From a bacterium (GTDB taxonomy: Bacteria; Zhuqueibacterota; Zhuqueibacteria; Residuimicrobiales; Krinioviventaceae): DNA of 64,000 nucleotides. Within the stretch, counting starts at the first letter, position 1; every line of letters starts with the position of its first letter. The notes beneath the pieces were generated by a model. It was not told the DNA's origin and ran no database searches. It was given only the letters and a program-made list of their open reading frames with translations. Below are positions 42,101 to 64,000 of this stretch, piece after piece. Position numbers and translations under genes: made by a program. The stretch lies in assembly GCA_963693055.1 (NCBI GenBank), contig OY843751.1, positions 3,456,001 through 3,520,000 on the forward strand, read 5' to 3'.

Positions 42101-42228
42101 GCATAATCATCTACATAGTCTTCTTCCGGTGGTTTTTCTGATAAAATAGTTGGATCACCAATTTGCGCAAAACCCAGGCTAATTCCAAAACAATATACTA
42201 CCAGAATTAAAATCTGCCAAAATCTCAT
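39160..42228 (-). CDS. Secreted surface protein: 3x unrecognised repeat domain + beta domain + 3x PKD + T9SS CTD (paralog D)
   Basis: Signal peptide; three WDFGDG PKD motifs; YPNPFNPTTNITF...SSGTYFIRM. Confidence 0.88.
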   Translation of the reverse strand: MRFWQILILVVYCFGISLGFAQIGDPTILSEKPPEEDYVDDYAKVPVEYQKLSIDEMREILAEEGLEEYIDEFKYRYAFRLHITGPTTAGIAETINNLRVGNINLTYFIKSKNASDENPIIIENRWSTLIELNSTNSNTWINTLDKYELIECYPDYIFSPIQEGEQPLELDLWVCQIKSVGDSLSFYLQGDEDITVTVQGYHLPDAVCKESISYTTVYTDEMQSILENDGLEDFAELFTQPYIYKLGMGGPKISYNYSFTSLHFDQTPSVIIGKGDEELEPYGPGFNIGPSPGSEYLFDFDRVTQWQDLTPYGSKGYLTFSFSEDMYYHSGTGCDLWLGFEESLGDQLMHVQLADGLTYISIDAWQVVQNDTMDFMRFGYNPVTKQEFENILIESNVENYQSFLDLPYYYNLNLDSGDDIETAVKFCIELGAAPVATIGKGSGTVKPQAAIGNAITNQHNVNTQEWEDLTSVCDSNVLYSILNDDESTGEAGVLSLWFGFDKEPGHVLKYFNVNNYLLPDSIALNAYRICDKQPITQVIISDSTRFNLDYLQAGDNYYIDSNYYLTSSFDDYYKVVWLQTPSIEKNNTLDSLCSILFKCHSYVYIAYDSRATSPPNWISNDYYHSHRPINSSEGLGFFTLHRKSVDAGERIVLGGNMAEGAIGAESQYLVILSLGSTVPPVADFTHQSKIGAAPLTVQFTDQSTGYIENWYWDFGDGESSIEQSPEHTFAVNDTYNVTLTASNSEGSDSKTYTAYVSDTSPVAAFSADITHGENPMTVTFTDESTGSVDAWLWDFGDGFTSTDQNPVHVYTSVDTFDVTLTASGPDGADQMVKEAFIIVTEPLPVAKFCADVNEGPAPLTIQFSDSSKGPINTWFWDFGDGNNSTDQHPQHVYTKVDTYTVTLIVTGPGGIAKLSKTDYISVQFPTGIAGMSEQPTSFALYGSYPNPFNPTTNITFDVPKAQHVTLSIYNVNGSLVETLVDEHKSPGRYTINWQAGHHSSGTYFIRMVTEGYSKIQKCILLK

Positions 42229-42258
42229 TTATAGTCCTTTTCTATAAAATATTAATCC

Positions 42259-42282
42259 CTGGCCCGTTATACAACGAGCCAG
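42259..42282 (-). repeat. Conserved intergenic hairpin, copy 1
   Basis: Minus strand CTGGCTCGTT-GTAT-AACGGGCCAG with one G-U pair; homologous to 45392-45413 and 48527-48550. Confidence 0.6.
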
Positions 42283-42294
42283 ATAATGATCCGA

Positions 42295-45200: not shown

Positions 45201-45360
45201 CTTGTTGATATTCAATAGGAATTTCAAAGTTAAAACGTTCTTCATTCACCTGTTCAACATCATCTTGATTGGACTGGTTTTGAAGATCATTTTCCTGCGC
45301 AAATCCCATTTGGAACATAATTAAACATAAACTAAGTACCACTATCTGCCAAAATCTCAT
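42295..45360 (-). CDS. Secreted surface protein, 3x repeat + 3x PKD + T9SS CTD (paralog C)
   Basis: Same architecture as 39160-42228. Confidence 0.88.
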   Translation of the reverse strand: MRFWQIVVLSLCLIMFQMGFAQENDLQNQSNQDDVEQVNEERFNFEIPIEYQQVTKREFDQILTSDGAQEFSDQFTYHNAYRIRITGPVIPDSLVSVGLYVGLYYQPILARCGNTTDEKTAIMQNGSKEGFVFNASNTNTWLDIAKTYRYLENSIHVDFSAIEQNEEPIELDIWVCQIPSVGNQIRGYYVDRPDGASITIQAYRITDAHCEEEINNHDIDHIGLDRLLTENGLEEFKHLFTQKHIYRISMSGPMDDYAGGSTTKLYFNQSVPVLIGKASIDVDGLWESVEIGSNESGFLYLNDEEDTYWKDYTQYCGSSTMYVGLSGDWQMHTSAGFQFWIGLDESLGSNLIHEQFSSGLTGISISGYHLVSDQLYASTVESGYDPVSQNELIGMLNDDNAGHYIQSLKQPYLYHLELINRVDTDKPVKMKMGMEIAPVSAIGKGSGTTSPQAAIGDAITNQHNVDMENWENLTSICNADTLFSILSNTPGSQKASKLSLWFGFDEQPGYNVFYENLDGYYLPNAIDVNAYRVVEKQPIPLISINDTVHCELEYLQEGDKYNTDRPYYIESIPDSLKGLVWLKTPYNVLDSTPDSLLTVKVKGAGTVYVVFLKYSWVLPDWMRNSLVYTQDQMFLGERSSYFPIYKINVTPGELVLGDYLEAGERFPYILLFDIEQSPPVANFTYQPETGRAPITVQFMDQSSGYIESWNWDFGDGKSSTEKNPGHTYVLPDTYYVTLTVSSTQGTDSKIDTIYIKDSNLIAEFSADTTSGVNPLTVHFTDESTGSINTWSWDFGDGTTSTEQNPVHQYTTADTFDVTLIVFGPDRSDQIVKEDYIIVFEPAPIVGFTADVTEGTAPLTVQFSDTSSGEIDFWFWDFGDGSFSTRQHPMHQYALVDTFTVSLRVSGPTGISRISKTDYIKLSYDTGIAGLSEQPTTFALYGNYPNPFNPTTNITFDVPRVQHISVSVYNINGGLVETLVDEYKSPGRYTINWQAGQHSSGTYFIRMMTEGYFKIQKCVLLK

Positions 45361-45391
45361 TTAAAATCCTTTTCAATAAAATAATAATCCA

Positions 45392-45413
45392 TGGCCCATT
45401 TTTAAACGAGCTA
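45392..45413 (-). repeat. Conserved intergenic hairpin, copy 2 (degenerate)
   Basis: Plus strand TGGCCCATTTTTAAACGAGCTA in a homologous spacer. Confidence 0.45.
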
Positions 45414-45425
45414 AAGTCAATCAGA

Positions 45426-48400
45426 TTATTTCAACAAAATACATTTCTGAATTTTACTATATCCCTCTGTCACCATCCGGATGAAATACGTTCCGGATGA
45501 ATGATGCCCCGCCTGCCAGTTGATCGTGTACCTGCCGGGGGATTTGTGCTCATCTACCAGCGTTTCAACCAGGCTGCCGTTCACATTGTAAATACTCACT
45601 TTGACATGTTGGGCGGCTGGAACATCGAATGTGATATTCGTTGTTGGATTAAAGGGATTGGGATAATTACCGTACAACGCAAAGCTGGTTGGTTGTTCGG
45701 ACAAGCCCGCAATACCGGTCGGGAATTGTACCGAAATATAATCCGTTTTTACTAAATTCGCTGACCCTCCCGGTCCCGTAACCGTCAACGCTACTGTGTA
45801 GGTATCTACTTTTGAGTATACGTGCTGTGGATTTTGATCTGTACTTGAACTTCCGTCACCAAAATCCCATAACCACGAAGTTATAACCCCGGAAGACGTA
45901 TCTGAGAATTGAACGGTTAATGGAACAGATCCTTCTGTTATATCCGCGGTAAACTGCGCTACCGGTACAGGTTCTACAACAACAATATAATCTTCTTTTA
46001 CAACCTGGTCCGACCCACCGGGACCACTTACTGTCAATGATACATCAAAGGAATCAGCAGAGGTGTATACATGCACAGGATGTTGTTCGGTACTGGTAGA
46101 ACCATCGCCAAAATCCCAGCTCCACGTATCAACCATGCCTGGGGATTCATCTGTAAACGAAACAGTCAATGGTTTATCTCCGCTTTTGATATCAGCATGA
46201 AAAGCTGCTACCGGAACTGTATATGTTACAATGACTGTATCGGTTTTGCTGTCAACACCAACCGCATTGCTGATAGTCAGGATAACATGATAGGTATCCG
46301 CAACTGCATAGATATGCTCAGGATTTTGCTCGGTGCTGCTCTCGCCATCGCCAAAATCCCATGCCCAATTTTCTATGAATCCTGTGGACTGGTCCGTAAA
46401 CTGCATGGTCAGGGGTTCCGATCCTGATTTGCGTTGATATTTAAAATCAGCAACCGGTGGCAATCCTTCAGGTATTTCAAACAGCACTACATATGGACAT
46501 CTGTAACTTTCATCTTGGTTACCTCCCAATATCAGCTCACCGGGTGTTACCTCTTTTTTATAGACAGGAAAATAACTACTCGTTTCACTTAGATAAATTT
46601 TATATGACGTTAAAACAAAATCCTTACTCATCCAACCCGGCAAATACCATTCAGGATTAATATAGGCAATATAAACAGTACCACTGGCCTTGATGTTCAC
46701 AGCAAGTAAAGAATCAGAACTGCCATTAAATTCATTGTATGAGGTTTTTAACCAAACCAGACCTTTTAGTTCCTCAGGTATGGATTGAATAGAATACTGC
46801 CGGTCTGTGTAATAATTGTCTCCTTCTTGCAGGTATTCAAATGCATAATTTAATGAATCCTCAACCCCTATCAGGGTTATGGGTTGCTTTTCAACTACAC
46901 GATAGGCATTCACATTGATTATATCTGGTAGAAAATAGCCATCCAGGTTTTCATAAAACAATTCATGACCGGGAGGATCATCAAACCCGAACCAGAGAGA
47001 GAGTTGGCTGGCTTTTTGGGAACCCGAATTATTGCTGAGTATCGTAAACAATGTATCATTATTACAAATGCTTGTCAGATCTTCCCAATTTTCCATGTCT
47101 ACATTGTATTGATTATTAATTGCATCTCCAATGGCTGCCTGAGGTGTTGTATTACCTGAACCTTTACCAATGGCTGAAACAGGTGCCAAGTCCAGACCCA
47201 TTTTCATTTTCACAGGCTTGTCAGTATCTATACCGTTTATGAGTTCAATATTATAGAGATAGGGTTTATCCATGATAGAAATAAAATCACCTGCATCATC
47301 ATCATTCAACATGCTTTTTAACTCGTTTTGGGAAATGGGATCAAAACCAAAATCCATGGTAGACGCATATTGCTGATCTGAAACCAGGTGCCAACCATCG
47401 ATATAAATACGCGTTAATCCATTCCTAAATTGTTCATGGTTCAAATAGCTGCCTAGAGATTCATCCAATCCTATCCAGAATATGAAATTGGGTCGTGAGT
47501 GCGAAATATCATCTTCCACCAAAAGAACATACATAGAGTTTTCGCCACACAATTGTGTAAAATCAGTCCAAATATAATATTCTTCTGTATTGAAATTATA
47601 AAGATCAACAGAACTGGGACCAATTTTTACGTAATCGTGACTGTTGGAATAAATTTTTGTGACTTTGCCAACCAAAACCGGGACATTCTGATTAAAATTC
47701 AACTTTGACAGAGAGCCATATGAATATAGATTGGTTGGACCATTCAAATGAATCCGATAAATATGTTTCTGAGTAAATAAATGTTTAAAATCATCAACAC
47801 CCTCATCAGATAGCAACTGGTCCAAACCAATCCTATCAATATCTTGATTATTAATTGCTACAGAACTGTGCGCATCAATAATGTCATATGCCTGAATGGT
47901 TATAGAAGCACCATTCGCTTCATCATAATAATAACCAACAACACTATCTCTAACTTTTATAGTCTGACACACCCATATGTCAAGCTCAATGGGTTCCTCA
48001 TTTTGAGCAATTGCACTCAAAGTAACGAAAAAATAATCGTCGTTAACGTGATAAGGCTCGAGAATATTTAACCATGTATTGGTATTTGAAGCATCAAAAA
48101 CAAAACCATCATTTTCACAAAATTGTATTTTGGCTGTTTTATTATCTGTGGTATTCTGGCTTTTTCCAATAACAAGTTGGTTAAAAGAACTAAGATTTAA
48201 ACGAAAACGGACGATTGTATCATTATTCACAGGACCGGTTATATGAATACGAAATGCATTATGAAACTCAAATCGATCTGAAAAAGCTTGTGCTCCATCA
48301 TCCGTCAGGATTTGATCAAATTCGCTTTTCGTTAACTGCTTATATTCTATTGGAATATTAAATTTAATAGATTCATCATCAACATTGTCAATATCTTGCT

Positions 48401-48494
48401 GCTCTTTTATTGTATCAAGGTCATTCTCTTTCGCAAAACCCAAACAACATCCAAAGCAAATTACAACCAGAATAAAAATCTGCCAAAACTTCAT
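45426..48494 (-). CDS. Secreted surface protein, 3x repeat + 3x PKD + T9SS CTD (paralog B)
   Basis: Same architecture. Confidence 0.88.
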   Translation of the reverse strand: MKFWQIFILVVICFGCCLGFAKENDLDTIKEQQDIDNVDDESIKFNIPIEYKQLTKSEFDQILTDDGAQAFSDRFEFHNAFRIHITGPVNNDTIVRFRLNLSSFNQLVIGKSQNTTDNKTAKIQFCENDGFVFDASNTNTWLNILEPYHVNDDYFFVTLSAIAQNEEPIELDIWVCQTIKVRDSVVGYYYDEANGASITIQAYDIIDAHSSVAINNQDIDRIGLDQLLSDEGVDDFKHLFTQKHIYRIHLNGPTNLYSYGSLSKLNFNQNVPVLVGKVTKIYSNSHDYVKIGPSSVDLYNFNTEEYYIWTDFTQLCGENSMYVLLVEDDISHSRPNFIFWIGLDESLGSYLNHEQFRNGLTRIYIDGWHLVSDQQYASTMDFGFDPISQNELKSMLNDDDAGDFISIMDKPYLYNIELINGIDTDKPVKMKMGLDLAPVSAIGKGSGNTTPQAAIGDAINNQYNVDMENWEDLTSICNNDTLFTILSNNSGSQKASQLSLWFGFDDPPGHELFYENLDGYFLPDIINVNAYRVVEKQPITLIGVEDSLNYAFEYLQEGDNYYTDRQYSIQSIPEELKGLVWLKTSYNEFNGSSDSLLAVNIKASGTVYIAYINPEWYLPGWMSKDFVLTSYKIYLSETSSYFPVYKKEVTPGELILGGNQDESYRCPYVVLFEIPEGLPPVADFKYQRKSGSEPLTMQFTDQSTGFIENWAWDFGDGESSTEQNPEHIYAVADTYHVILTISNAVGVDSKTDTVIVTYTVPVAAFHADIKSGDKPLTVSFTDESPGMVDTWSWDFGDGSTSTEQHPVHVYTSADSFDVSLTVSGPGGSDQVVKEDYIVVVEPVPVAQFTADITEGSVPLTVQFSDTSSGVITSWLWDFGDGSSSTDQNPQHVYSKVDTYTVALTVTGPGGSANLVKTDYISVQFPTGIAGLSEQPTSFALYGNYPNPFNPTTNITFDVPAAQHVKVSIYNVNGSLVETLVDEHKSPGRYTINWQAGHHSSGTYFIRMVTEGYSKIQKCILLK

Positions 48495-48526
48495 TTCAAC
48501 CCCGTTTCGAAAATAAATATTAATCC

Positions 48527-48550
48527 CTGGCCCGCTTTTAAACGGACCAG
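48527..48550 (-). repeat. Conserved intergenic hairpin, copy 3
   Basis: Minus strand CTGGTCCG-N8-CGGGCCAG with one G-U pair. Confidence 0.6.
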
Positions 48551-48562
48551 AGAATAATCAGA

Positions 48563-51500
48563 TTATTTCAACAATATACATTTCTGGATCTTGGAATATC
48601 CCTCTGTCACCATCCGGATAAAGTATGTTCCAGATGACCGGTTGCTCGCCTGCCAATTGATCGTGTATCTGCCGGGAGATTTGTGTTCGTCTACCAGCGT
48701 TTCAACCAGACTGCCATTCACGTTGTAAATGCTCACCTTGACATGCTGTGCGGCCGGAACATCGAAGGTGATATTCGTTGTTGGATTAAACGGATTGGGA
48801 TAATTGCCGTACAATGCAAAAGTCGTTGGTTGTTCGGACAAGCCCGCAATACCAGTTGGGAATTGTACTGAAATATAATCCGTTTTTGACAGCTTTGATA
48901 CGCCTCCAGGTCCTGTGACCGTTAGCGTAACCGTATAGGTATCCACTTTGGTGTAGACATGACTCGGGTTCTGCGCGGTACTGGTGAGTCCGTCTCCAAA
49001 CTGCCACAACCACGATATTATAGCTCCGGAAGAAGTATCTGAGAATTGGACTGTCATGGGTACAGATCCTTCAATGATATCTGCAGTAAAGCCTGCAACA
49101 GGCAAAGGCTCAATTGTAATAATATAATTTTTCTTTTCAACCTGATCCGTTCCACTGGGACCGCTAACCGTCAGTTTTACATTGAATGTATCTACAGTCG
49201 TGTATTCATGTACGGGATTTTGTTCGGTACTGGTAGAGCCATCACCAAAATCCCAGCTCCACGCATTGATAGAGCCTGATGATTCGTCAGTAAATGTAAC
49301 TGTTAATGGATTATCTCCACTTGTAGTATCTGCGCTGAACGCAGCAACCGGAGCTGCATCGGTTACATATACTGTATCGGTTTTGCTGTCACTACCGTCA
49401 GTACTGCTGACAGTCAGAGTTACATAATAGCTATCCGCTGTAGCATAGGTATGTTCGGGATTTTGCTCAGTGCTGCTCTCACCATCACCGAAATCCCATG
49501 CCCAATCTTCTACAAATCCTGTGGACTGGTCTGTAAACTGTACGGTCAAGGGTGCCGTACCGGATTTGGGCAGGTGGGTAAAATCCGCAATCGGTGGCAG
49601 CGTCTCGGGAATATCCAACAGCACAACATACTGGCTTTCAGCTCCATTTGCACCCTCGGCAAGGTTGCCGCCAAGCACCAAATCACCCGAACTTACTTGT
49701 TTTTTATATAAATCGAAATATTCTGCTTCATCGCTGATCCCAATCTGATCTCCAGTAGCTGTATATTGGTCAGCAATCCAGTTTGGCAAAGATGCAGCAC
49801 GGCTGTCATAAGCAATGTAAACAGTACCGTTGCCATTTAAACGTACTGCACACAAGGTGTCTGAGATATTACTCTTTTGTTCATTGGGCATTTGCAGCCA
49901 CAACAATCCCTGTAGACTATCAGGAACTGATGTGATATAGTATCCCCGATCAGTGTAATAGCTGTCACCTGCCTGTAGAAAACCCGGTTGATACAGAACA
50001 GAATCACCTGATGTGATTTGTTGTTTCACCGTGTCGGTAGTAATACGATACGGCAAAATAATGATAGAGTCAGGATACTCGTAACCCATTAAATTTTGAA
50101 AAATAATCGAGTTTCCTGGCATTTCATCAAATCCAAACCAGAGAGACAGTTCAGCAGCATTTACAGCATTTTGTTCATTAGTCAAGATTGTATATAATTC
50201 TGCTGAATTGCAGATATCTGATAAATTTTCCCAACCATCAATACTCACATTATGTTGGTTGTTTATTGCATTACCAATAGCAGACTGGGGATTTATCTGG
50301 CCGTTCCCTTTACCAATAGCCGCATTGGGAGAAGAATCCAACTCCATAGCAAGTTTTACAGAATTCTCAAAATCCAGTGAACCTTTTAACACAATATTTA
50401 ATAAATTGCCTTGAGTAAATTGATCGGCAAAAGCCTCTGCACCGTCATTTTTCAACAACTCTTTGAATTGGTTTTGCGTTATAGGATTATAACCAAAAAT
50501 TTCGGTTTGTTTATCATTTTGTAACGTATACCCAGTTATGGTAAAAATATCAGGATAATTTGTATTGTCATTATTTTTATCAAAGGTAATATACTCACCC
50601 AACGATTTATCAAAACTCATCCACAAAACAACACCCGTAGTGTCTAGCGGATTATTAGTTGATAATTCAGTCTTGAAATACAATTCTTGAGTAGATAAAT
50701 AATCAATTTCCTGCCAATTCACATCATTCATTTCAACAGCACTATCAGAATCTGGCCCTATTTTACAAATATTACCATTGCTGGAGATGGCCCTGCCAAT
50801 AACTGCCAGCGGAGTCTGCTTCAGATTAGCAGTAATATATTCCACAACAGTTTCATGGCTATACTCTTTGGGTAACCCCGCAATCTTGAACTCGTAAACA
50901 TAAGGTGCATCTAATTTTTCCAAATATTGAGATGGCAACGTATTGCTCATATAATTATTAAAATCAGACCTGGTAATAGTATGCCGATCTATAATTGCAG
51001 TATGATCAGTAGTATAGGCATTAATAATAAACCTGGGCTCACAATCTCCATAGTCTTCATAAACAATCTCGTCCCCTATAGATGCATACGAACCAATCCA
51101 AATATGTAATTTTGATTGATGATGCATTTGAGGATGTGCAAGCATTGAAAAATAGATCCTTTTATTTGCAAAGTATTTTGTAATATTGAACCATTCAACG
51201 TTTTCTTGATAATCTAACATTAAACATGAATCAGGATCGGTCAAATAAGACAAATTAATTCCCAAATCAACGCTACCTTCATTTCCTGGCTCCGAATCAA
51301 GTCTACCAATCACTAAAGATGGTACAGATTCAAGTTTCCATAGAAAATCAGTAATTGTATCATATACATAAGCTCCACTTATTTCTATTTTATAAACAAA
51401 TGGATAATTAGGCAAGTTTGCAAACCCATCTGCCTCACCTTCTTTTATTAATTCCTCAAGTTCTGCTCGAGGTATATATTCATGTTCAAAAGATATTCTT

Positions 51501-51577
51501 TTCTCATTTTCTTGTGCAAAACCAAAATTTACAATCACACAGCACACCAATAAAAAACACATCATAATATGTTTCAT
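48563..51577 (-). CDS. Secreted surface protein, 3x repeat + 3x PKD + T9SS CTD (paralog A)
   Basis: Same architecture; most divergent N-terminus. Confidence 0.88.
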   Translation of the reverse strand: MKHIMMCFLLVCCVIVNFGFAQENEKRISFEHEYIPRAELEELIKEGEADGFANLPNYPFVYKIEISGAYVYDTITDFLWKLESVPSLVIGRLDSEPGNEGSVDLGINLSYLTDPDSCLMLDYQENVEWFNITKYFANKRIYFSMLAHPQMHHQSKLHIWIGSYASIGDEIVYEDYGDCEPRFIINAYTTDHTAIIDRHTITRSDFNNYMSNTLPSQYLEKLDAPYVYEFKIAGLPKEYSHETVVEYITANLKQTPLAVIGRAISSNGNICKIGPDSDSAVEMNDVNWQEIDYLSTQELYFKTELSTNNPLDTTGVVLWMSFDKSLGEYITFDKNNDNTNYPDIFTITGYTLQNDKQTEIFGYNPITQNQFKELLKNDGAEAFADQFTQGNLLNIVLKGSLDFENSVKLAMELDSSPNAAIGKGNGQINPQSAIGNAINNQHNVSIDGWENLSDICNSAELYTILTNEQNAVNAAELSLWFGFDEMPGNSIIFQNLMGYEYPDSIIILPYRITTDTVKQQITSGDSVLYQPGFLQAGDSYYTDRGYYITSVPDSLQGLLWLQMPNEQKSNISDTLCAVRLNGNGTVYIAYDSRAASLPNWIADQYTATGDQIGISDEAEYFDLYKKQVSSGDLVLGGNLAEGANGAESQYVVLLDIPETLPPIADFTHLPKSGTAPLTVQFTDQSTGFVEDWAWDFGDGESSTEQNPEHTYATADSYYVTLTVSSTDGSDSKTDTVYVTDAAPVAAFSADTTSGDNPLTVTFTDESSGSINAWSWDFGDGSTSTEQNPVHEYTTVDTFNVKLTVSGPSGTDQVEKKNYIITIEPLPVAGFTADIIEGSVPMTVQFSDTSSGAIISWLWQFGDGLTSTAQNPSHVYTKVDTYTVTLTVTGPGGVSKLSKTDYISVQFPTGIAGLSEQPTTFALYGNYPNPFNPTTNITFDVPAAQHVKVSIYNVNGSLVETLVDEHKSPGRYTINWQASNRSSGTYFIRMVTEGYSKIQKCILLK

Positions 51578-53970: not shown

Positions 53971-55302
53971 TTAAATTTCGGGCAAGCTTATAATAAATCG
54001 CACACCATGTTCAAGATTCTCCACAGTGAACGATCCCTTATGCTTGACAATAATTTCTTTACATATCATGAGACCAAAACGGTTTTCCAAATCGGCTTCT
54101 ACATTTGTCAAGGGCTGAAACAATTGTTTCAACTCGCTCTTATCAAGACCTTTAAACCGATTGCTAAATAATAACTTTACTCTACCCTGATCAGGATTAT
54201 AGCAGGTTTGTAGATTAAAGTTATAAATATTGGTTTTCTCAATGAAAAAATTACAAATATTATACAATGCTAAATGCATCTGGGTTTTATCAATTTTGAC
54301 ATCAGGAATATCGCTTTGAATCTGTACATCAAAAATAGGATTATTTTTTGTATAAATGGTATGAATAAAATCCATAAACTCTTTAACTAGATCATTTATA
54401 CTACAATTTTCAAGCCGGGTCTCTATTCGGATATTATCAACCAAACCGTTTGACATGCTTTGTAGTTCTTTTAACAAAAATGAAATATTACCCAACTTGT
54501 CCGCTACACGATCCAAATTTGCATTCTTTTCCAAATAGCGGGTAACTAATTCTAGACTGCTGCTGGTTTCAAGAAGAAAATTATTCAAAAGGTGACCTAT
54601 ACTAGCGGCTACTTTGGTTTCGGCAGCAACTTTTTCCACATCTATCAATGCACCTGAAGTATTTGAAAGACTTGCAAAGGATTGCTCTTGCAATTGATAA
54701 AACATGGCATTACGAATTGCAATTGCTGCCTGGGTTGAAAAATGCTGTACAAGCTCCTGTTTGATTTTAGAATCACCAATCAAAGGATTTGCGCTATCGG
54801 CATAAATCAGACCCAGAATATCATTATCAATAATCAATGGGCAACAGATAATACTCTTGGAGTCCAAATGTTTATTGGGGAATAATTGTACTTTAGAAAC
54901 GTCATCAAAGTAATAGATGGCTTTGTGTTGATATGTTTTTAAAAGAATATTTTTAACAATCTTGAAATTTTTCTTGTCCAGATTATTATGGTTTGCATCT
55001 CGGGCAATTTTAAACTCCAGACGGCCCTGGGGAGTTTTTAATAATAAAAAGCCTCTTTCTGCCTGAATTACAGAGATAAGGGAATCAATAACAGATTCAA
55101 GAACCTGACCAAGACTAAGGGTTGAATAAATTTGACCAAAGCTGTTTACTACGGTTGAAATATAATCCCAATGTTCAGGGGAGTGGTCCAAGGTAGGATC
55201 AAGTTGATATTTACCGTGATCTTTGAATTCCAGATTGTCTTGTTGATAATCAATAAAATGTTCATCGTCACGTATGAGTTCTTTATTCAAGTCGTTCTTC
55301 AT
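53971..55302 (-). CDS. GAF + histidine-kinase-like protein with a degenerate ATP-binding domain (pseudokinase / possible phosphotransferase)
   Basis: Start likely ATG 55302 (GGAGGA RBS); GAF (AERGFLLL, SIICCPL, GLIYADS, QAAIAIRNA); H-box AASIGHLLNN; N-box and G1 box lost. Confidence 0.8.
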   Translation of the reverse strand: MKNDLNKELIRDDEHFIDYQQDNLEFKDHGKYQLDPTLDHSPEHWDYISTVVNSFGQIYSTLSLGQVLESVIDSLISVIQAERGFLLLKTPQGRLEFKIARDANHNNLDKKNFKIVKNILLKTYQHKAIYYFDDVSKVQLFPNKHLDSKSIICCPLIIDNDILGLIYADSANPLIGDSKIKQELVQHFSTQAAIAIRNAMFYQLQEQSFASLSNTSGALIDVEKVAAETKVAASIGHLLNNFLLETSSSLELVTRYLEKNANLDRVADKLGNISFLLKELQSMSNGLVDNIRIETRLENCSINDLVKEFMDFIHTIYTKNNPIFDVQIQSDIPDVKIDKTQMHLALYNICNFFIEKTNIYNFNLQTCYNPDQGRVKLLFSNRFKGLDKSELKQLFQPLTNVEADLENRFGLMICKEIIVKHKGSFTVENLEHGVRFIISLPEI

Positions 55303-55339
55303 TGCCCGACATCCTCCACACCACACTATTCTGCTATAT

Positions 55340-55367
55340 AAAAAGCAAAGGGCCCAAGTAGGGCCCT
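55340..55367 (-). terminator. Intrinsic terminator after the small lipoprotein gene
   Basis: Minus strand AGGGCCC-TACTT-GGGCCCT followed by TTGCTTTTT. Confidence 0.7.
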
Positions 55368-55379
55368 GTTGTATTTAAA

Positions 55380-55961
55380 TCAATCTTTTGTAATCAAGTA
55401 AATCGAAAAATGTTCAATATCAAATGTTACGCGTTGACGGCCTCTGTCCCATTTGAATTTAGTATCATTTGCTGCTGCTGAATTGGAAACTTTGACCCAT
55501 TTAGATCCGTTCCAATTCCACAGAGAAACATTGTCATTTTGAAGTTCTCTAAAGTTCATAACCAATTTTGCATTTGGTGTAAACTCTAAACCTGAAGGAT
55601 CAAAGGTAAAAATCAAATCACCTTTTGAAGTCAAATCTGCCTGAGCATAAATACGCGTATTGCGCTTTGAACTCATTGAGAATGGAGGCACATACAAGTA
55701 ACCAATATTGCGTTTGCCAATCCATCCGCCTTTGCGGTAATTGATTTTTTTGCTTGTTTTCCAGGTTCTAACGATAGTAAAATCGTCATAAGGTAACTCG
55801 TCAATAGCGGTAATACCAGCTATTTTATCCACCCCCATCCCATCATCATCACTTTGTGTTACATCTGCCAATGGTGCATTCGGCATTTTTTCACAACCGG
55901 TTAGCTGCAAACCCACGATCACCATGATCGTTACGAACAACAACCCTCTTAAATGTTTCAT
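55380..55961 (-). CDS. Lipoprotein with a ZU5/GAIN-like beta domain ending in an HFS motif
   Basis: Lipobox LTGC; KGGWI...LYVPPFSM...FTFDPSGLEF..A.L...W.W....W...VTFDIEHFSIY, a pattern typical of ZU5-like domains. Confidence 0.7.
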   Translation of the reverse strand: MKHLRGLLFVTIMVIVGLQLTGCEKMPNAPLADVTQSDDDGMGVDKIAGITAIDELPYDDFTIVRTWKTSKKINYRKGGWIGKRNIGYLYVPPFSMSSKRNTRIYAQADLTSKGDLIFTFDPSGLEFTPNAKLVMNFRELQNDNVSLWNWNGSKWVKVSNSAAANDTKFKWDRGRQRVTFDIEHFSIYLITKD

Positions 55962-56026: not shown

Positions 56027-56043
56027 AGCAAATTGTAGGCCAG
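56027..56043 (-). promoter_or_regulatory. Sigma54 (-24/-12) promoter of the HFS lipoprotein gene
   Basis: Minus strand CTGGCCTACAATTTGCT = TGGC-N7-TTGCT with exact GG-N10-GC spacing, 65 bp upstream of the ATG. Confidence 0.65.
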
Positions 56044-56247: not shown

Positions 56248-59200
56248 TCACATTGAGGCTTTTACTGTCTTTATACTTTTTAACAAGTCCAGATTTTCCG
56301 GATACTTTATTAATGATTGCTTATAAGAGTCTGGTTCGATATGAGTCAAACATAACTTTAAGCATTGGTATGCTTTACGAAAACATTTATAACTCTTGAT
56401 TTTATCTCCGGCTTTGAAATACATTTTGCCGCGGAGATAATAAATGCTTTTCACTTGAAGCATTAACCCCATCGATTGCGCAATTTCTTCTGCACGGTCC
56501 AGAGTTTTCTCTATCACTTCTATAGGTTTCTGCGCTTTGTACATTGCATTTGCAAACAATATCATTATTTGCAATTTATACCACTTGAAATTAGAATCTT
56601 CTATTACTTTTTGTAAGGATGGCAATATCTTTAAAGCATTTGCCATTTGGCCTTGTTCAATATAATATTGTAAATAAAACATCTCTATCTGCATCTTAAG
56701 CATAATATTAGAATCTTTGTCAGATAATGCTTTGGCTTCATGCAGAGATGGGTTTTCAAATTCACCAGTTTCAAGAAATTTAATTCTGGACTTCATTACC
56801 AGATATTCACCGAGCTTGGATTTATCGTTCAAAGATTCTGTAATTTTTAAACAGGCATCAATAGACATTTGGGCCTGCTCTATTTGATATAAAGCAACAT
56901 AAACCCGGCTTTTTTGAAAGAGCATTTCAGCTTTTGTAGACTCGCTTCGTATACGCTCAGAAAACTTTATTCCTTCATCAAGAATATTTAAAGCATTTGT
57001 ATAATCTTCACGTAAAAAAAGCAATTCACCAATATTACAATGCGATGCTACCAATCCACGAATATCACCAATTCGGTTTTTCAAATCTTTGCATTTTTTA
57101 AAATAATTCAAGGCACGCTCATATTGTCCACTTTCCATCAACAGTATGCCCAGATTATTATAATTTTCTGCAAGTCCGGCCCAGTCACCGGCCTCTTCCA
57201 TTACCTCCATACTTGAACGCCAATAGGTACTGGCTTTTTCAGGATCACCGGAAACATTATATACAATACCCAAATTATTCAGGGTTGCGGCCATACTCTT
57301 TTTATCGCCCATTTCTTTCTTAACTGAAGCACTTTTTGCAAAATATTTAATAGCATATTCAATATTTCCGGAATAAAAGCTAGCTCCACCCAACGTATTC
57401 AATGTTAAAGCCATAATACGAGATGGAGAGTTTTCAGGCAACAAATTCAATGCCTTTTCACCCAACTGAATTGCTTCCTGATAGTTACCTCTCATAATTG
57501 ATAGCCATGCCAATTCTCTCAAAATTAACGCACGTTCTATAATAGCACTTGCAGGAGCCTGCTTTAATGCACGGTTTAAAGCTTCATCCGCCTGATCTAC
57601 ATTACCAATTTTCTGATAAAGATCAGAAATCCGTCTTTCAAGGGCTGATTTGGCAACACCCGCTTTATAATCCGGTAACAATTCGCTATATAAATCAAGA
57701 GCAGTAGTTGAATCTCCCAACGAATCTTTTAAATCAGCTACGTTTCGTTTAAAAAAACGAACAAGCCTTTTTTTATCTGCAGGACTATGGTCCAATGCTA
57801 GCTGGGCAATAACCAGTGCACGTCTATATGAATTTGAATTTTTTAAAATATTAATTGCTTGAGAAGCAAGCGGTATCCCTTCAACGATATACCCTGCTCT
57901 TAAAAAATGTAAAGCCTTTTGATTTGGAGCATATTCCATGTCTGAACACTCTAACAAATATGCTGCTATTCTAGCAGTAATATCAGATTTAGCAGTTTCA
58001 GACAATTGTCCCATAACTGCATCTCTAAAAGCAATAGATAAAAAGCTGTAAACCGTACCCAGTTTGTCGTGATGTTCCAACAGAATACGCTTATCCATCA
58101 ATATTTCTACATTATGCTGGATTTCATTCTCATCACAGTTGACAAGATGTAATAGTAATCGCTTTTCTATTGCAGAATCATAGACTGCGATATTTTGTAA
58201 TATATTTTTTTGGAGTTCAGACAGGTTTCTGAATGTATTCAGATACAGCGCATTGATACTGGAAAGATCCAATGATTCCAGATCATAAGTTTCACTCATC
58301 ATCCAGGTTCTATCAGATCGGATAAAGAAACCTGCATTATTCAAAGCTGTAACAATAGCAGCTACAATCTCAACATTACCACCACTTTTACCATACAATT
58401 GCTGGTAAAATCTGGCAGGAAATAAAGAGGGCTTGAAAGCTGTAAGTAAGAGCTGTTCAAGCTCGGTTTCTTCTAAACACTTTACTCGAAAATCATATAC
58501 CGCAGCAAGTGAATCTCGACCTTTTTGAATATTTAATGCTGCTTCATCAGACTGTCGGTCTGTGGTAATGGTTACAACTATAGATACTTTATCATGGACC
58601 AGCGAACGACCAAGATAATAAATCAGGTCCAGCACTGCATTATTAGCCTGTTCCAGATTACGCAAAATAATTACTATACGCTTTCTTCTGCTTAAATCCC
58701 GAACCAGATTTGAAAATTCTTCCATAAACCGAAAACGTCCAAGTTCGTAATCATCCCGATTTTGACGTATTGCCAACAGCTCAGCTTCGGTTTCGGAAAC
58801 AAGTTTTTCAATATCTGCATACCCTTTAAAAGCATCAATAAAAGGTTGATACAGTGAGCCCTTGTCATCCCGGCACCAGCTCTCAAGGACAGATATATTA
58901 TCCAACTGCATTTTCGATTTTACATCCTGTAAAATTCTATATGCACCAGAGCCTTCATTGCCATTTATTGTAATAAAGTTGATTACATCATCATGTTGTG
59001 ACAAGCCAATGGATATTTGCAGTAAAAGTTTTTGAATTTCAGGATCACGCAACTTTAAAAATGCATCCATAATTAATGGAGAAATAAGGTCACGTGTTTT
59101 TGCAGAATCATAATCTTCAACACCCAAAGCGGTCAACAATTCTTCGCAACTTGCAAACCTCTCCAAAGGATCTTTAGACAAGAGTCTGAAAATAACAGAT

Positions 59201-59967
59201 TCAAGTTTATCAGAAAGATCAACTCCCAGAGCAGAAAATCTTTTGGGCAGCGTGCGCAAATGCCCGCTCTTGATATCATCCGGACTGCCATAAAATGGAG
59301 CTTTTCCGGTCAGGGCCCAGTACATTAAAATACCAACAGCATAAAGATCAGTAGAAAAGGTAACTGGCGCTTTTTGAAAAAGTTCAGGCGCCATGTATTC
59401 TAATGTGCCGCTCAGCGTTTGTTTGAGTTTTATATTTTCATCTTTACGTACGGCAAGACCAAAGTCCATTACCTTAATATTGGGATTCCCCTTTTCATCA
59501 TGGTAAACCATGATGTTTTCGCTTTTTATATCACCGTGCAATATTCCAGAAGCATGAATATAACCCAGTGCCTGTACAAGCTGTATAAACAACTTTACCA
59601 GAATTTCGCTGGAAAAAGAACCAACGGCATCAAAAAAATCTTTGCCATTCACATATTCCATTGTATAGAAATACTCATCACGATCAGAAAATTTACCAAA
59701 ATCAATTACCCGTACCAGGTTAGGGTGCCTGAGTGCGGATAAAATAGCAAATTCCCGACGCAAAGATTCTATAATCTCTGGATCTGAATGTTTTGCATGA
59801 AAGACTTTGAGAACAATGTTCTCATTATCACGTGCGGTATCCTCAACAAGAAAAACAATTCCCATCCCCCCACGGCCCAGCTCCTTAATCACTCGATAAC
59901 GGCCGTTTATCACATCGTCCACAGTTTTCGTTTTTAGTTCAGGAGATTGAAAAACTGCATTTTCCAT
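56248..59967 (-). CDS. Hanks-type Ser/Thr kinase - degenerate AAA/STAND-like NTPase - TPR protein
   Basis: GRGGMG, VLK, HPNLV, HGDIKSEN, DFG, GTLEYMAPE; central GNEGSGAYR / IILRNLEQAN / SGGN; TPRs (LNTLGG, LNNLGIVY, YNNLGIL). Confidence 0.92.
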   Translation of the reverse strand: MENAVFQSPELKTKTVDDVINGRYRVIKELGRGGMGIVFLVEDTARDNENIVLKVFHAKHSDPEIIESLRREFAILSALRHPNLVRVIDFGKFSDRDEYFYTMEYVNGKDFFDAVGSFSSEILVKLFIQLVQALGYIHASGILHGDIKSENIMVYHDEKGNPNIKVMDFGLAVRKDENIKLKQTLSGTLEYMAPELFQKAPVTFSTDLYAVGILMYWALTGKAPFYGSPDDIKSGHLRTLPKRFSALGVDLSDKLESVIFRLLSKDPLERFASCEELLTALGVEDYDSAKTRDLISPLIMDAFLKLRDPEIQKLLLQISIGLSQHDDVINFITINGNEGSGAYRILQDVKSKMQLDNISVLESWCRDDKGSLYQPFIDAFKGYADIEKLVSETEAELLAIRQNRDDYELGRFRFMEEFSNLVRDLSRRKRIVIILRNLEQANNAVLDLIYYLGRSLVHDKVSIVVTITTDRQSDEAALNIQKGRDSLAAVYDFRVKCLEETELEQLLLTAFKPSLFPARFYQQLYGKSGGNVEIVAAIVTALNNAGFFIRSDRTWMMSETYDLESLDLSSINALYLNTFRNLSELQKNILQNIAVYDSAIEKRLLLHLVNCDENEIQHNVEILMDKRILLEHHDKLGTVYSFLSIAFRDAVMGQLSETAKSDITARIAAYLLECSDMEYAPNQKALHFLRAGYIVEGIPLASQAINILKNSNSYRRALVIAQLALDHSPADKKRLVRFFKRNVADLKDSLGDSTTALDLYSELLPDYKAGVAKSALERRISDLYQKIGNVDQADEALNRALKQAPASAIIERALILRELAWLSIMRGNYQEAIQLGEKALNLLPENSPSRIMALTLNTLGGASFYSGNIEYAIKYFAKSASVKKEMGDKKSMAATLNNLGIVYNVSGDPEKASTYWRSSMEVMEEAGDWAGLAENYNNLGILLMESGQYERALNYFKKCKDLKNRIGDIRGLVASHCNIGELLFLREDYTNALNILDEGIKFSERIRSESTKAEMLFQKSRVYVALYQIEQAQMSIDACLKITESLNDKSKLGEYLVMKSRIKFLETGEFENPSLHEAKALSDKDSNIMLKMQIEMFYLQYYIEQGQMANALKILPSLQKVIEDSNFKWYKLQIMILFANAMYKAQKPIEVIEKTLDRAEEIAQSMGLMLQVKSIYYLRGKMYFKAGDKIKSYKCFRKAYQCLKLCLTHIEPDSYKQSLIKYPENLDLLKSIKTVKASM

Positions 59968-59982
59968 TTAAACCATTTTTCG

Positions 59983-61554
59983 TTATTCCCAATACCAATG
60001 CGCTATGTTGAAAAAAGTCGATACAGGAGAAAATTGTATTCCCTTTAATTGCTTATCCATTCCAACAATTCGTTCAGGGATCCACAAAAATGTTGCGGGT
60101 TGTTCCTGAACAATAATTTCTTGAAATTCATACCACAAAGGCCTGGATTTTTCGGGCTCCAAGATGTCAGGGGCCTGTTCTATTATTTCATCTATTCGTT
60201 TATTCTGATAACATGACAAATTGAAACCGGGAGATTCAATCATAGAAGAATGCCAAATAGGATAAACATCAACCTTGGTTGCTGACATCATACCCAGTAA
60301 CAAGGCATCAAAATCGCGGGACATTAAATCTTCAACATAAGCTGAAAATTCAAGACGCTGTGGAATCACCTTGATTCCAACCTTTTTTAACATTTCCTGA
60401 ATCATTACGAGTGCATCTTCGCGTACCTGGCTGCCAATATTTGTTAACATTTGAAATTCAAAATCTTTTCCATTTTTATCAAGCCAGCCATCATTATTGC
60501 TGTCAGTCCAACCCTCTTCTTTTAACAGAGTTTTTGCGGTTTCGGGATCAAAGGGTATTGATTCAAGATCAGGATTATATGCCCACAACATGGGATGTAT
60601 AGGGCTGTCATAAACTTTACCATATCCTTTTAACAAATGCTGAACCAGAGTCGGACGATCAATTGACATGGTCAATGCTCTTCGAACACGGGCACTTGCA
60701 AACAAAGATCTACTTGTATTCCATGATATTTGATTAAATTGAGCATATGGAAAATGCTCTAAACGCAGTTGGGGTGAATTGCTAAAATCTGCGTTCGCCG
60801 GAGGTACACCTTCGATAAAATGAATTTCACCAGTTTTAAGCTGTGTAAGGAGTTGTGTTTTATCCGGTACAATTTTAAATACAATCCGTGGAAGCTTGGG
60901 TAACCCTTCAACTGAAAATTTTTCGTTTCTTAACAGCTCAATAAATTGATTTGGTACCCAGGACTGTATAACATATGGACCCGAAAAAACACCATCCAGT
61001 GCAAAATCAAAAGATTTTATTTGTTCTGCGGATTTATCGGCAAATATATGTTTGGGAACGATAACACCTTCACAGGCATCCATTAACTGATAGGGATAAA
61101 GCGTATCAAAATAAAAATCAATTGTTGAATCATTTAATACACGGACTTGCGAAATATGTTCTTTGACATTCGCACCAGCCCACCCGATATCAGGATCGGT
61201 TTGTAATTGAAACGTAAATTCAACATCTGCAGCAGTCAATGGTACACCATCAGACCAAAGCACATCAGATCTCAAATGAAATCGGATTCGACTGTCATTG
61301 TCCATCATCTCCCAGGAACGGGCAAGCGCGGGTTTAAAACTGACAAAATCCGGTTGCTCAATTAACAGGGACTGAAACAACATTTTAGACATTTCAGAAC
61401 CAAATCGCGAGGTTGTAACCAAAGGATTAAAGGAATCTGTATCACCTGGTACACCAATAATCAAAACATTTTTGGTGGCATTTTTTCCACATGAAAATAG
61501 AAAAATCCCCAAGACAGATAATAAAAGCAGAATTGAATTTATTTTAATTTTCAC
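59983..61554 (-). CDS. Peptide/nickel ABC transporter substrate-binding lipoprotein (family 5, OppA/AppA-like)
   Basis: GTG start; lipobox LFSC; PALARSWE, FHLR.DV.WSDGVPLTAADVEFT, GPYV, RVRRALTMSIDR. Confidence 0.92.
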   Translation of the reverse strand: MKIKINSILLLLSVLGIFLFSCGKNATKNVLIIGVPGDTDSFNPLVTTSRFGSEMSKMLFQSLLIEQPDFVSFKPALARSWEMMDNDSRIRFHLRSDVLWSDGVPLTAADVEFTFQLQTDPDIGWAGANVKEHISQVRVLNDSTIDFYFDTLYPYQLMDACEGVIVPKHIFADKSAEQIKSFDFALDGVFSGPYVIQSWVPNQFIELLRNEKFSVEGLPKLPRIVFKIVPDKTQLLTQLKTGEIHFIEGVPPANADFSNSPQLRLEHFPYAQFNQISWNTSRSLFASARVRRALTMSIDRPTLVQHLLKGYGKVYDSPIHPMLWAYNPDLESIPFDPETAKTLLKEEGWTDSNNDGWLDKNGKDFEFQMLTNIGSQVREDALVMIQEMLKKVGIKVIPQRLEFSAYVEDLMSRDFDALLLGMMSATKVDVYPIWHSSMIESPGFNLSCYQNKRIDEIIEQAPDILEPEKSRPLWYEFQEIIVQEQPATFLWIPERIVGMDKQLKGIQFSPVSTFFNIAHWYWE

Positions 61555-61563: not shown

Positions 61564-62985
61564 TTAATAAATGATATCGTCAGAAACATTCAGTTTTTCT
61601 ACTTGTAATCCTTTTTTATCTTTTTGATAAACAGGCAAAGAGAGTGTAAATGTTGAACCTATTCCTAATTCACTATCAACTACAATGGAACCACCATGTT
61701 TTTTGGCAATTGCCTGACAGATACTGAGACCAAATCCATGACCTTCTGCTTTGTCCGTGAACAGAGGTGTAAAAATCTGACTCAATTTAGATTTTTCAAT
61801 ACCGGGGCCGGTATCTTGAATGCATATATCCACGCAATTCTCTTTTTCGAAATAGCGTGTTTTAAATGTAATATGTGTATCCGGACGGACTTCAATAGCA
61901 TTCTTTGTAATATTGTAAAAGATCTGCTGAATTTGTCCCTTGTCAACATCAATCTCTGGTACTTCCGGATCAAAATCCTGTTCAAAACTGGCACCCGATT
62001 TTTTATAAACCGGACGAATAAATTCCATAAAATCATGAACAAGCTGATTCAGGTTACAAGGCTCAATTTTTGTTTCAAGATGTGAATTGTTCATGAGTCC
62101 CTGAGAGAACCGGGTCATATTATCAAGTTTTTTGGCAACAAATTCCAGGTGTCCTAAAACCTTTTTTGTATCTCCCTCATTTACCAGATAGTGTATAGCC
62201 AGCTCAAGGTTTCCATAAATGATTGATAACAAGTTGTTCAACTCGTGACCAATACGTGCAGCCATCTTGCCACGTGCAGCCATCTTTTCAGCATAAATCA
62301 TACGGTCCTGAGCATTCTCTAGCTGCTCATAAGATACTTTGACCTTTTGGTATAATTGAGCATTGCGTATACCTTCGGCAGCCTGATCAGCAAACAACTG
62401 GAACAATTGTTTCTTGATCTTGGATTTACCAATAAGCGGTTGTGAACTGTCTGCATAGATAACACCTATCAATTCACCATTAATAAACATAGGACAGCAG
62501 ACAATACTGCGCAATTTTAATTGACGCACACTTTGAGTAGGAGAGTAATTTTGATCTGAAAAAACATCTTCAATATAAACAATCTCTTTTTTACGGATAG
62601 TTTCGTGTAAATAGCTGTTACTAATTTTGAATTCACTGTCATTCAAAATCTTTTTATCAGCATCACGACCAATCTTAAATTCCATCTCTCCTTTTGTGTT
62701 TTTCAACACAAGAAATCCTCGCTCCGCATGAATAACTGAAATAGCAGCATCCATAACATGCAGCAGAACTCTTTTTATATCCAAAGAACTGTTCATCAAC
62801 CGGAATGTTTCCAGCAATTTAGAAATAAAATTCCAATCGCCTATGGAACTGTCTTCTTCCTGTGCCTCAATCTCTTCGTCCAGATCCTCAATTTCCTGAT
62901 CAAACTGACTTATCAGATCCATAAAATCATTTTCAGCACCAGCTTCTTCTTTTGGAAACAGTTCCCTATCTTTATCCGTGAACAT
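61564..62985 (-). CDS. Cytoplasmic GAF-domain sensor histidine kinase
   Basis: GAF; H-box ARIGHELNN; N-box NITKNAIE; G1 DTGPGI; F-box IFTPLFTDK; G2 GHGFGLSIC; GSTF; no TM helix. Confidence 0.93.
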   Translation of the reverse strand: MFTDKDRELFPKEEAGAENDFMDLISQFDQEIEDLDEEIEAQEEDSSIGDWNFISKLLETFRLMNSSLDIKRVLLHVMDAAISVIHAERGFLVLKNTKGEMEFKIGRDADKKILNDSEFKISNSYLHETIRKKEIVYIEDVFSDQNYSPTQSVRQLKLRSIVCCPMFINGELIGVIYADSSQPLIGKSKIKKQLFQLFADQAAEGIRNAQLYQKVKVSYEQLENAQDRMIYAEKMAARGKMAARIGHELNNLLSIIYGNLELAIHYLVNEGDTKKVLGHLEFVAKKLDNMTRFSQGLMNNSHLETKIEPCNLNQLVHDFMEFIRPVYKKSGASFEQDFDPEVPEIDVDKGQIQQIFYNITKNAIEVRPDTHITFKTRYFEKENCVDICIQDTGPGIEKSKLSQIFTPLFTDKAEGHGFGLSICQAIAKKHGGSIVVDSELGIGSTFTLSLPVYQKDKKGLQVEKLNVSDDIIY

Positions 62986-63233: not shown

Positions 63234-64000
63234 TTAATATTTAAAAAATCTTTCCTGCAAATATTCTCCAAACAAATTAATTAACAAAACTGTTACAACA
63301 ATGGCCACTCCGGGAAACACACTGATCCACCAACCATCTATTAATACCTGCCGGCCCTCATTAATTATATTACCCCAGCTTGGAGTAGGTGGTTGAACAC
63401 CCAGGCCAACAAAACTCAATGCAGATTCAACAAGAATCACATTTCCAAAAAGCAGTGTTGCTGAAACAGCAACCGGGCCAATTAAATTTGGCAGTAAATG
63501 CTTAAATAACAACCTCATTCTAGAGATGCCTATAACGGTTTCTGCCAGAATAAAATCTTTATGCTTTAAAGCAAGGGTCTGGTTGCGCACCAGTCTTGCA
63601 ATATCCATCCAGCTAAATAGCGCTATTATCAAGACAATCCACAATACTGAACTTTTTCCCAATACAGCGGCAACGGACAAGATCAACAAGAATTGCGGAA
63701 TCGCCATAAACACATTGATCACATTATTCAAGACAAAATCGAACCGATCAAAAAAACCACTTGTCAACCCATAAGGTATTCCAATCAATAGTGACATACC
63801 TACGGATAATAATGCCACCCATAAGGAAATTCTCCCTCCATATAACACTCTTGCCATAACATCTCGACCAAATTTATCAGTACCCATCAGATGTCCCGCA
63901 TTTGGTGCATGATATGAGTGTTCAAGATCATGAGTTACAGGATCGTAATTAATCAACAACGGTCCTGCAATTAAACTGATCAGTAATATCAACAACAAGA
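63234..64000 (-). CDS. Peptide ABC transporter permease (OppC/DppC-like); 5' end lies outside the window
   Basis: HLMGTDKFGRDV..RVLYGGRISL, EAA-like loop DFILAE..IG, ESALSFVGLG..PPTPSWG, WWISVFPG. Confidence 0.93.
   Translation of the reverse strand, partial: LLLILLISLIAGPLLINYDPVTHDLEHSYHAPNAGHLMGTDKFGRDVMARVLYGGRISLWVALLSVGMSLLIGIPYGLTSGFFDRFDFVLNNVINVFMAIPQFLLILSVAAVLGKSSVLWIVLIIALFSWMDIARLVRNQTLALKHKDFILAETVIGISRMRLLFKHLLPNLIGPVAVSATLLFGNVILVESALSFVGLGVQPPTPSWGNIINEGRQVLIDGWWISVFPGVAIVVTVLLINLFGEYLQERFFKY

Follow-up and report, generated by a model that had tools for sequence, protein, structure and literature searches.

A stand-alone ZU5/MAIN-like lipoprotein beside an Opp importer and a TPR kinase: a candidate self-processing precursor of a bacterial peptide signal

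The DNA analysed here (the window, 64,000 nucleotides) carries on its minus strand, at 55380..55961, a gene for a stand-alone ZU5/MAIN-like lipoprotein of 193 residues, which by its sequence and predicted fold is a candidate signal precursor. This lipoprotein is real and conserved, and very probably part of a signalling cassette. On balance, it is probably a self-maturing precursor: after export and lipidation, as its lipobox signal suggests, its ZU5/MAIN-like domain would cut itself at HF|S, and the octapeptide SIYLITKD would stay in place as the last beta-strand until freed; the freed peptide would then enter the cell through the neighbouring Opp-type transporter, and the TPRs of the kinase encoded next to it would sense it. 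The parts of this reading differ in strength. The anatomy, predicted fold, conserved motif, operon, promoter box, and co-occurrence with TPR and Opp genes are direct results of the analysis. Self-cleavage between F and S, with the strand retained, is highly likely by analogy with characterised domains, and the joint event of release, import by a dedicated Opp system, and binding in a TPR groove, judged from gene context, has somewhat better than an even chance.

The gene is preceded by an AG-rich ribosome-binding site and followed on its 3' side by a GC-rich hairpin with a T tail (55349..55367), which is terminator-like or stabilising; these and the following features all lie on the minus strand. 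The product begins with a type II signal peptide and the lipobox L-T-G|C23 (55893..55961), a Sec/SPII-type signal read from the sequence and conserved among members of the family, with the cysteine invariant in all 34 aligned members. An acidic linker (DVTQSDDDG) and a ZU5/GAIN-B-like beta-sandwich of residues from about 62 to 193 (55383..55778) complete the protein. The predicted autoproteolysis motif, H184-F185-S186 (55404..55412), was identified from the sequence, from alignments, and from the F/S cut known from B. subtilis MAIN; it is followed only by IYLITKD and the stop codon, which falls 8 residues past the predicted cut, and there is no cargo. The last beta-strand, S186-D193 (55383..55406), is the octapeptide predicted to be released, as the AlphaFold2 model and a comparison of tails suggest. 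Re-reading the sequence confirmed the open reading frame, the lipobox, the acidic linker, and the H-F-S with its IYLITKD tail that an earlier note on this DNA had described, at the coordinates it had given, as well as the stand-alone architecture, with a single beta domain and no domain after H-F-S. The window's genome encodes no second stand-alone paralogue; one protein of 1793 aa has a weak match to the domain, and the motif is absent from it.

A phmmer search against 1.84 billion representatives gave 26 matches, 21 of which were aligned with the query (22 rows). Those left out were P0006, a protein with two domains that retains the motif in both, and four repeat or local matches (P0019, P0021, P0022, and P0026). 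The histidine and phenylalanine are invariant in all 22 rows, at position 186 one row has T and the other 21 have S, and D193 is retained in 20; the conservation of HFS by which the earlier note had proposed to judge its idea thus holds, in the form HF[S/T]. The ESM Atlas yielded 30 look-alikes; among the matches listed, lengths are 185-196 aa and Ignavibacteriota, Kryptoniota, and Gemmatimonadota are commonest, and one cluster is 51% ZU5. Within the class, 49 of 125 genomes have a profile match, and within the phylum 58 of 167, both counts including cargo-fused domains (genomes G116 and G120 may be counted in the class, phylum, and own-family denominators, and no other result depends on them). 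Our profiles also detect HFS domains fused to cargo, and the homology demonstrated is to these unnamed cargo-fused domains. We defined a terminal-motif class by a motif no more than 20 residues from the end: among 145 distinct complete matches shorter than 450 aa, 139 end in HF[S/T] and a short tail, and the remaining six comprise two degenerate sequences and four internal or truncated cargo types. The profile of the sigma-54 clade (members encoded with a sigma-54 activator) matched nothing in viral contigs.

Some members depart from the single-domain architecture. Two proteins (L053:8688-9899 and L110:8075-9286) have two ZU5-like domains, the inner one without HF[S/T] and the terminal one retaining it. 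As far as sequences go, this loss from an inner domain and retention in a terminal one would favour the signal reading. In three others (L206:1360-2613 from genome G004, L109, and L102), an HF[S/T] domain near the N-terminus is followed by cargo, the reverse of the published MAIN order; L206 and L109 are lipid-anchored, and proteins of this type could release a C-terminal cargo.

The AlphaFold2 model of the lipoprotein, built from the 22-row alignment, has a mean pLDDT of 84.7, with 85-98 per block over residues 61-193. It is all-beta: HFS closes a strand of residues 177-184, and after a turn the last strand runs over residues 188-192. Compared with 48,161 representative chains, the model best matches the ankyrin-B ZU5 domain (VIA-align, Z 11.8, rmsd 2.7, 117 aligned residues), followed by further ankyrin ZU5 domains (Z 11.0 and 10.7), UNC5b (8.8), and the GAIN domains of CD97 (8.4) and BAI3 (7.0), with CARD8 and NLRP1 below. 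Foldseek gave nine matches at E <= 0.001, all of them ankyrin ZU5 (E 2e-4), and a 34-row family profile matches the ZU5 domains of ankyrin-1 (E 3e-4) and ZO-1 (E 5e-4) by sequence; this broad profile was needed for ZU5 matches, as the narrow 22-row profile returned only chance-level matches against PDB sequences. No family in Pfam or NCBIfam exceeds the cut-off for the lipoprotein, and the Pfam ZU5 model (PF00791) does not match the window protein and weakly matches two of the 34 members (best E 0.006). Taken together, the structural comparison, Foldseek, and profile matches indicate that the modelled domain belongs to the ZU5/GAIN-B-type sandwich fold, in agreement with the earlier note. Of the three folds that it had named for comparison, ZU5 and GAIN were matched, and the Nup98 autoproteolytic domain was absent among the matches listed. 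We know of no self-cleavage by the ZU5 domains of ankyrin and UNC5b, the closest solved folds, so the fold alone is no proof of cleavage.

The argument for cleavage comes from the chemistry of MAIN and GAIN domains. MAIN domains cut between the F and S of HFS; they lose this activity when S is changed to A and regain it with T, and after cleavage the two fragments remain attached to each other (Brogan and Rudner, bioRxiv 10.64898/2026.05.12.724683). Because the same exchange keeps MAIN active, the S-to-T exchange at position 186 is compatible with cleavage. Like MAIN, the domain in the window is a bacterial GAIN-B/ZU5-like sandwich with HX(S/T) before the last strand, in a protein predicted to be exported and surface-tethered. 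However, virtually all MAIN proteins, according to the same preprint (bioRxiv 10.64898/2026.05.12.724683), have the order signal peptide, cargo, MAIN, and C-terminal anchor and average 158 kDa, whereas the window protein has an N-terminal anchor, no cargo, and a predicted product of 8 residues. We therefore did not assign it to the MAIN surface-protein class, although it carries a ZU5/MAIN-type domain.

The tail beyond the predicted cut is constant in length: the stop lies 7-9 residues after F in 144 of 150 tails (three mis-parsed tails were corrected by hand). The variability among homologues that the earlier note had in mind is found in the sequence types, which differ between OppA and TPR clades, and not in the length, which is fixed. 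Two different systems can even occur within one genome (G109, G124, and G061). A quick tree places the OppAs that adjoin lipoproteins in a single clade (25 of 30 rows, SH-aLRT 92) whose subclades match the tail types, and the TPR clades match them likewise (FastTree), a correspondence that co-inheritance alone could give. In 64 pairs of same-length array paralogues, the bodies are 36% identical; for the tails (minus the first residue) the figure is 78%, and for their last three residues it is 71%. The best 7-residue window of the body reaches 81% (0.81 versus 0.78 for the tail), and 12% of the windows in the body score at least as high as the tail; conservation of the tail is thus partly structural, as the tail is no better conserved than that best window. 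The tail SRYAVAW is common to 17 distinct proteins with a median body identity of 42%, although the metagenome scan pattern contained HFSRYA and the first tail residues there were therefore selected for.

These properties bear on a quite unlikely alternative, namely that the gene is a mere output of a sigma-54 regulon located beside its regulators, with HFS and the tail kept for folding and no signal involved. The pattern S/T-x-Y/F also occurs in cargo-fused domains, and the best structural matches are ZU5 domains that to our knowledge do not cleave, both of which fit a role in folding. On the other hand, the catalytic-type histidine and the S/T are strictly kept, the motif is lost in an internal copy, tails are fixed at 7-9 residues, and arrays have one or two tail types only; these facts argue against this alternative.

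The gene context of the lipoprotein in the window's genome (G000) is an operon on the minus strand that closes with the lipoprotein gene, in the order two ABC ATPases, oppB, oppC, GAF histidine kinase, oppA, Ser/Thr kinase-AAA-TPR, and lipoprotein. The OppC-like permease gene (63234..64000) runs past the window edge, and oppB and the two ATPase genes come next at 3520037-3522582 of the genome; the importer set is thus complete, with a family-5 binding protein, two permeases, and two ATPases. A soluble GAF histidine kinase (61564..62985) has intact H, N, and G boxes by motif reading. The OppA-like family-5 binding lipoprotein (59983..61554) is the only PF00496 protein in the complete 6.5-Mb genome; among NCBIfam models it matches Opp4A best (E 4e-54) and NikA next, all below cut-off. 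The family-5 binding proteins include carriers of nickel and other solutes as well. The candidate cytoplasmic receptor (56248..59967), whose gene is 286 bp from that of the lipoprotein, is a 1239-aa protein that joins a Ser/Thr kinase with intact motifs, an AAA region with a degenerate P-loop, and TPRs. On the other side of the lipoprotein gene, past the hairpin, a GAF histidine-kinase-like protein without canonical N and G boxes (53971..55326) is likely a pseudokinase and is conserved downstream in the clade. Four related genomes (G001, G005, G014, and G017) have the same gene order and tails of the form SIYLI[ST]KD; identity to the last three is 40-41% for the lipoprotein and 53-54% for the kinase.

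Other parts of the window hold different gene sets. On the minus strand, positions 39160-51577 hold four paralogous genes in tandem. Their products, of 1004-1022 aa, carry three PKD domains and a C-terminal sorting domain of the T9SS type (Pfam, one of the four), and nothing in Pfam convincingly matches their first 650 residues. Positions 1-37800 contain a long run of genes that look carbohydrate-active or sugar-catabolic when their translations are inspected by eye; they are unrelated to the lipoprotein.

For the wider family, we compared 72 genome loci (most, not all, of the profile matches) and 73 metagenome loci, annotated with profiles that were built from the same neighbourhoods and checked by Pfam, a choice that may favour detection near the family. 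Of the 56 genome loci with a terminal motif, 45 have a TPR gene no more than 1.5 kb away, as do 29 of the 32 that have a 5-kb flank on both sides; Opp genes lie within 8 kb in 24 of the same 32. In the window's genome, TPR genes have a background of 2.1% and Opp genes one of 0.3%. For cargo-fused homologues, a TPR gene within 1.5 kb was found in 0 of 15 and 0 of 26 loci; this absence of the TPR link (0/41) also counts against the view of the gene as a mere regulon output. The metagenome loci, many of them short, have a TPR neighbour in 19 of 46 cases and Opp genes in 0 of 6 with long flanks, and for loci from other classes the count with a TPR gene at 1.5 kb or less is 0 of 6. The TPR link covers seven families of the class, the related genomes among them not being independent. 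Of the 11 genome loci (out of 56) without an adjacent TPR gene, some are contig ends and some are true orphans (L055, L066, L093, and L094).

Three architectures recur. In the first, opp genes are followed by a sigma-54 activator, one or more lipoproteins, and a 415-aa TPR protein. The second has lipoprotein arrays, AAA-TPR, TPR, kinase-AAA-TPR, and opp. The third, on GC-rich contigs, pairs a lipoprotein with the tail SRYAVAW with a TPR-HD-GYP protein and has no Opp. The TPR region is thus fused to or adjoins varied outputs, namely kinase, AAA, HD-GYP, and sigma-54 activator. The largest array (L115:79-8584) consists of 11 complete lipoprotein paralogues and one partial reading frame, with two alternating tail types and a repeat insert in one paralogue, and precedes two TPR genes (AAA-TPR and kinase-AAA-TPR).

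Asn ladders in TPRs can grip extended peptides. The 415-aa TPR proteins have an invariant asparagine every 40 residues (N210, N250, and N290), and the kinase TPRs have an invariant ladder of N857, N898, N938, and N978. The best natural PDB matches of the sigma-54-clade TPR are LGN, Pins, and kinesin light chain; RRNPP structures account for 0 of its 51 PDB matches at E <= 1e-8 and for none of the NCBIfam matches, TPRs being hard to place. Published criteria for RRNPP systems are a propeptide of 10-100 aa, Sec export, and a receptor of 250-500 aa with TPRs that adjoins the precursor gene (PMC9765709, PMC10075063). The cassette shares with RRNPP(A) systems (Rap-Phr, NprR, PlcR, Rgg, PrgX, and AimR) a candidate exported precursor with the peptide at its C-terminus and an adjoining cytoplasmic TPR protein, and, judging from its genes, may also share Opp import, variable outputs, and peptide types that follow receptor clades. 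It differs in that the precursor is a folded 193-aa lipoprotein predicted to process itself, not a propeptide of 10-100 aa; the host appears to be diderm, the importer is within the cassette, the candidate receptor is a 1239-aa kinase (the TPR proteins of the sigma-54 clade have 407-464 aa), and the TPRs are nearest to LGN, Pins, and KLC. Because precursor and receptor both fall outside the published size ranges, we do not file the cassette as RRNPP, though Sec export and the TPR neighbour are both present.

The association with OppA was followed within the own family of the window's genome. Among its 16 genomes that are at least 85% complete, all nine with the lipoprotein have OppA beside it; of the seven without, five have no PF00496 match, one has a distant match, and one (G004) has a full cassette. 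A prospective look at 20 further OppA loci with no known lipoprotein found an adjacent one in none, 15 of the 20 lying outside the cassette OppA clade. Among the five inside it, G055 and G124 carry lipoproteins elsewhere and the contig of G122 stops after the activator. In G100, also inside the clade, the lipoprotein is on another contig, with a TPR gene directly after it and the T-type tail of its OppA clade. The fifth genome, G004, is 97% complete; it shares the Opp-kinase-TPR cassette of the window, and no terminal-type lipoprotein was found in it. The corresponding site (L199:14286-14681) is an empty stretch of 395 bp that lacks the lipoprotein, the sigma-54 box, and the second GAF kinase alike. 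Thus, either this is a receptor-only strain or the lipoprotein is dispensable, and the orphan copies together with this one cassette are a reason for caution on the signal reading. Another OppA subfamily, which has no permeases with it, is conserved in one family (L186-L188, L190-L192, L194, L195, L197, and L198); there it is flanked by a divergent 670-aa gene on one side and a gene for an exported protein of 327 aa on the other.

It could be argued that the lipoprotein acts intact or nicked in the envelope, for example as an accessory of OppA or of another membrane component, its strand never being released and the TPR protein sensing other Opp cargo. This is unlikely in our view. In its favour, G004 keeps the cassette without the lipoprotein, OppA and the sigma-54 activator can stand apart from the lipoprotein-TPR pair (G100 and G124), and MAIN cleavage products remain stably associated and are released only by SDS or 95 C. 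However, in split cassettes the lipoprotein stays with the cytoplasmic TPR gene and not with OppA (L205, L067, and the GC-rich loci without Opp), and an exported protein would reach a cytoplasmic partner only via a diffusible piece. The identity of the last three tail residues among paralogues with divergent bodies likewise speaks against this role.

The lipoprotein gene also appears to have its own promoter. A sigma-54-type -24/-12 box (56027..56042, minus strand) lies about 80 bp upstream, recognised by a pattern match and by its recurrence across loci. The strict pattern is found upstream in 22 of 53 genome loci against 0.17 expected from base shuffles, with 0 on the wrong strand, and 19 of the 22 boxes are at -60 to -103. 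For metagenome loci the count is 3 of 33 and for cargo-fused loci 1 of 31, while in the window's genome 1.6% of long ORFs have the pattern upstream. Within the window alone there are 6 matches versus 4.75 expected, which is not significant, so only the recurrence across loci counts as promoter evidence. The box is also upstream of orphan lipoprotein copies, as would be expected of a mere regulon output. The window's cassette contains no sigma-54 activator gene; many exist elsewhere in the genome. Among the most speculative steps of the proposed mechanism are that the GAF kinases would pass the signal on to an unlinked sigma-54 activator and that a quorum-sensing-like feedback would act on the precursor's own promoter. 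Boxes of the same type lie 60-75 bp upstream of genes that are grpE- and dnaK-like by N-terminal sequence (G000:C1:4874544-4875098 and 4869639-4871561), which suggests sigma-54 control of chaperones.

The trigger of release belongs to the same most speculative group: more plausible than force is that the body unfolds or is turned over, comparable to the functional degradation of NLRP1, or that OppA extracts the strand. In NLRP1 and CARD8, the C-terminal fragment is freed when the N-terminal fragment is degraded (PMC7483925). The ZU5 domains of PIDD, NLRP1, and CARD8 (PMC7483925, PMC3482391) resemble the window's domain in fold, and N-terminal loss that frees a C-terminal piece is a plausible trigger here too; unlike in those proteins, there is no UPA or effector domain after the cut, and the domain lies outside the cytoplasm. 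The earlier note had suggested a caged signal peptide freed by unfolding or force. The caged last strand gained ground from the adjoining TPR sensor, the peptide-type importer, and the clade-specific tails, whereas force lost it. Extraction of the strand by mechanical force, as proposed for adhesion GPCRs and MAIN, has the analogy to GAIN and MAIN in its favour, but the lipid anchor and any extra domains lie on the same side of the cut, and tension cannot act across the cut because the 8-residue tail carries nothing to pull on. We therefore rejected force as the trigger and consider it highly improbable. As in the GAIN domains of adhesion GPCRs, the strand after the cut would be the agonist; unlike there, it would be free, with no 7TM tether and no force handle.

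A very unlikely variant shares the core of our preferred explanation and differs from it in range only: the tail would be a cell-autonomous alarm with no cell-to-cell role, and the body would serve as a tripwire, set off by damage to the envelope, by foreign proteases, or by unfolding. Arrays of up to 12 paralogues with divergent bodies, inserted domains, and two tail types (L115, counting its partial frame) would suit such tripwires, as would the degradation-dependent release in NLRP1 and CARD8. Conversely, a sigma-54 promoter, often with an adjoining activator, suits autoinduction, and clade-specific tails and a receptor-only genome (G004) suit private channels and eavesdropping.

Short peptides derived from lipoproteins are already familiar as signals: the sex pheromones of Enterococcus are hydrophobic peptides of 7-8 residues from lipoprotein signal peptides, made by membrane proteases and taken up by Opp-type import. 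The octapeptide would resemble them as a short lipoprotein-derived peptide with Opp-type import, but they are N-terminal in origin, whereas here C-terminal autoproteolysis is predicted. ZU5 domains had already been described in bacterial toxins and surface proteins (PMC3482391), and self-cleaving bacterial domains with HF|S are already published; what is new here is the gene context of the stand-alone HF|S lipoprotein. The authors of the MAIN preprint state that the C-terminal fragment has no signalling tied to it (bioRxiv 10.64898/2026.05.12.724683). In the literature searched, mostly outside subscription journals, we found no paper on the pairing of a ZU5/MAIN lipoprotein with TPR or Opp proteins; the MAIN tables of 15,000 proteins could include short lipoproteins. 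The lipoprotein is likely a self-processing precursor of a peptide signal, for a peptide route so far known mainly from Gram-positives, where the precursors are different.

In its widest form, to which we give only marginally better than an even chance, the finding would point to a widespread and undescribed class of peptide signalling in diderm bacteria. The ZU5/GAIN-like lipoprotein would be precursor and protease in one and its last strand a caged agonist, a dedicated importer would deliver the peptide to interchangeable TPR sensors that feed kinase, HD-GYP, and sigma-54 circuits, and paralogue arrays would feed several triggers into one or two channels. Current detectors would miss such precursors because they cap propeptides at 100 aa. 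The MAIN preprint leaves open whether the post-cleavage strand signals in microbes; that question is directly testable here with a 170-residue domain, a synthetic octapeptide, and two neighbour proteins. If the reading is true, RRNPP-style communication would extend beyond Gram-positives, with a precursor that needs no processing protease, and the tethered-agonist logic of GAIN domains would be linked to bacterial peptide signalling, the octapeptide being a free-peptide counterpart of the adhesion-GPCR agonist.
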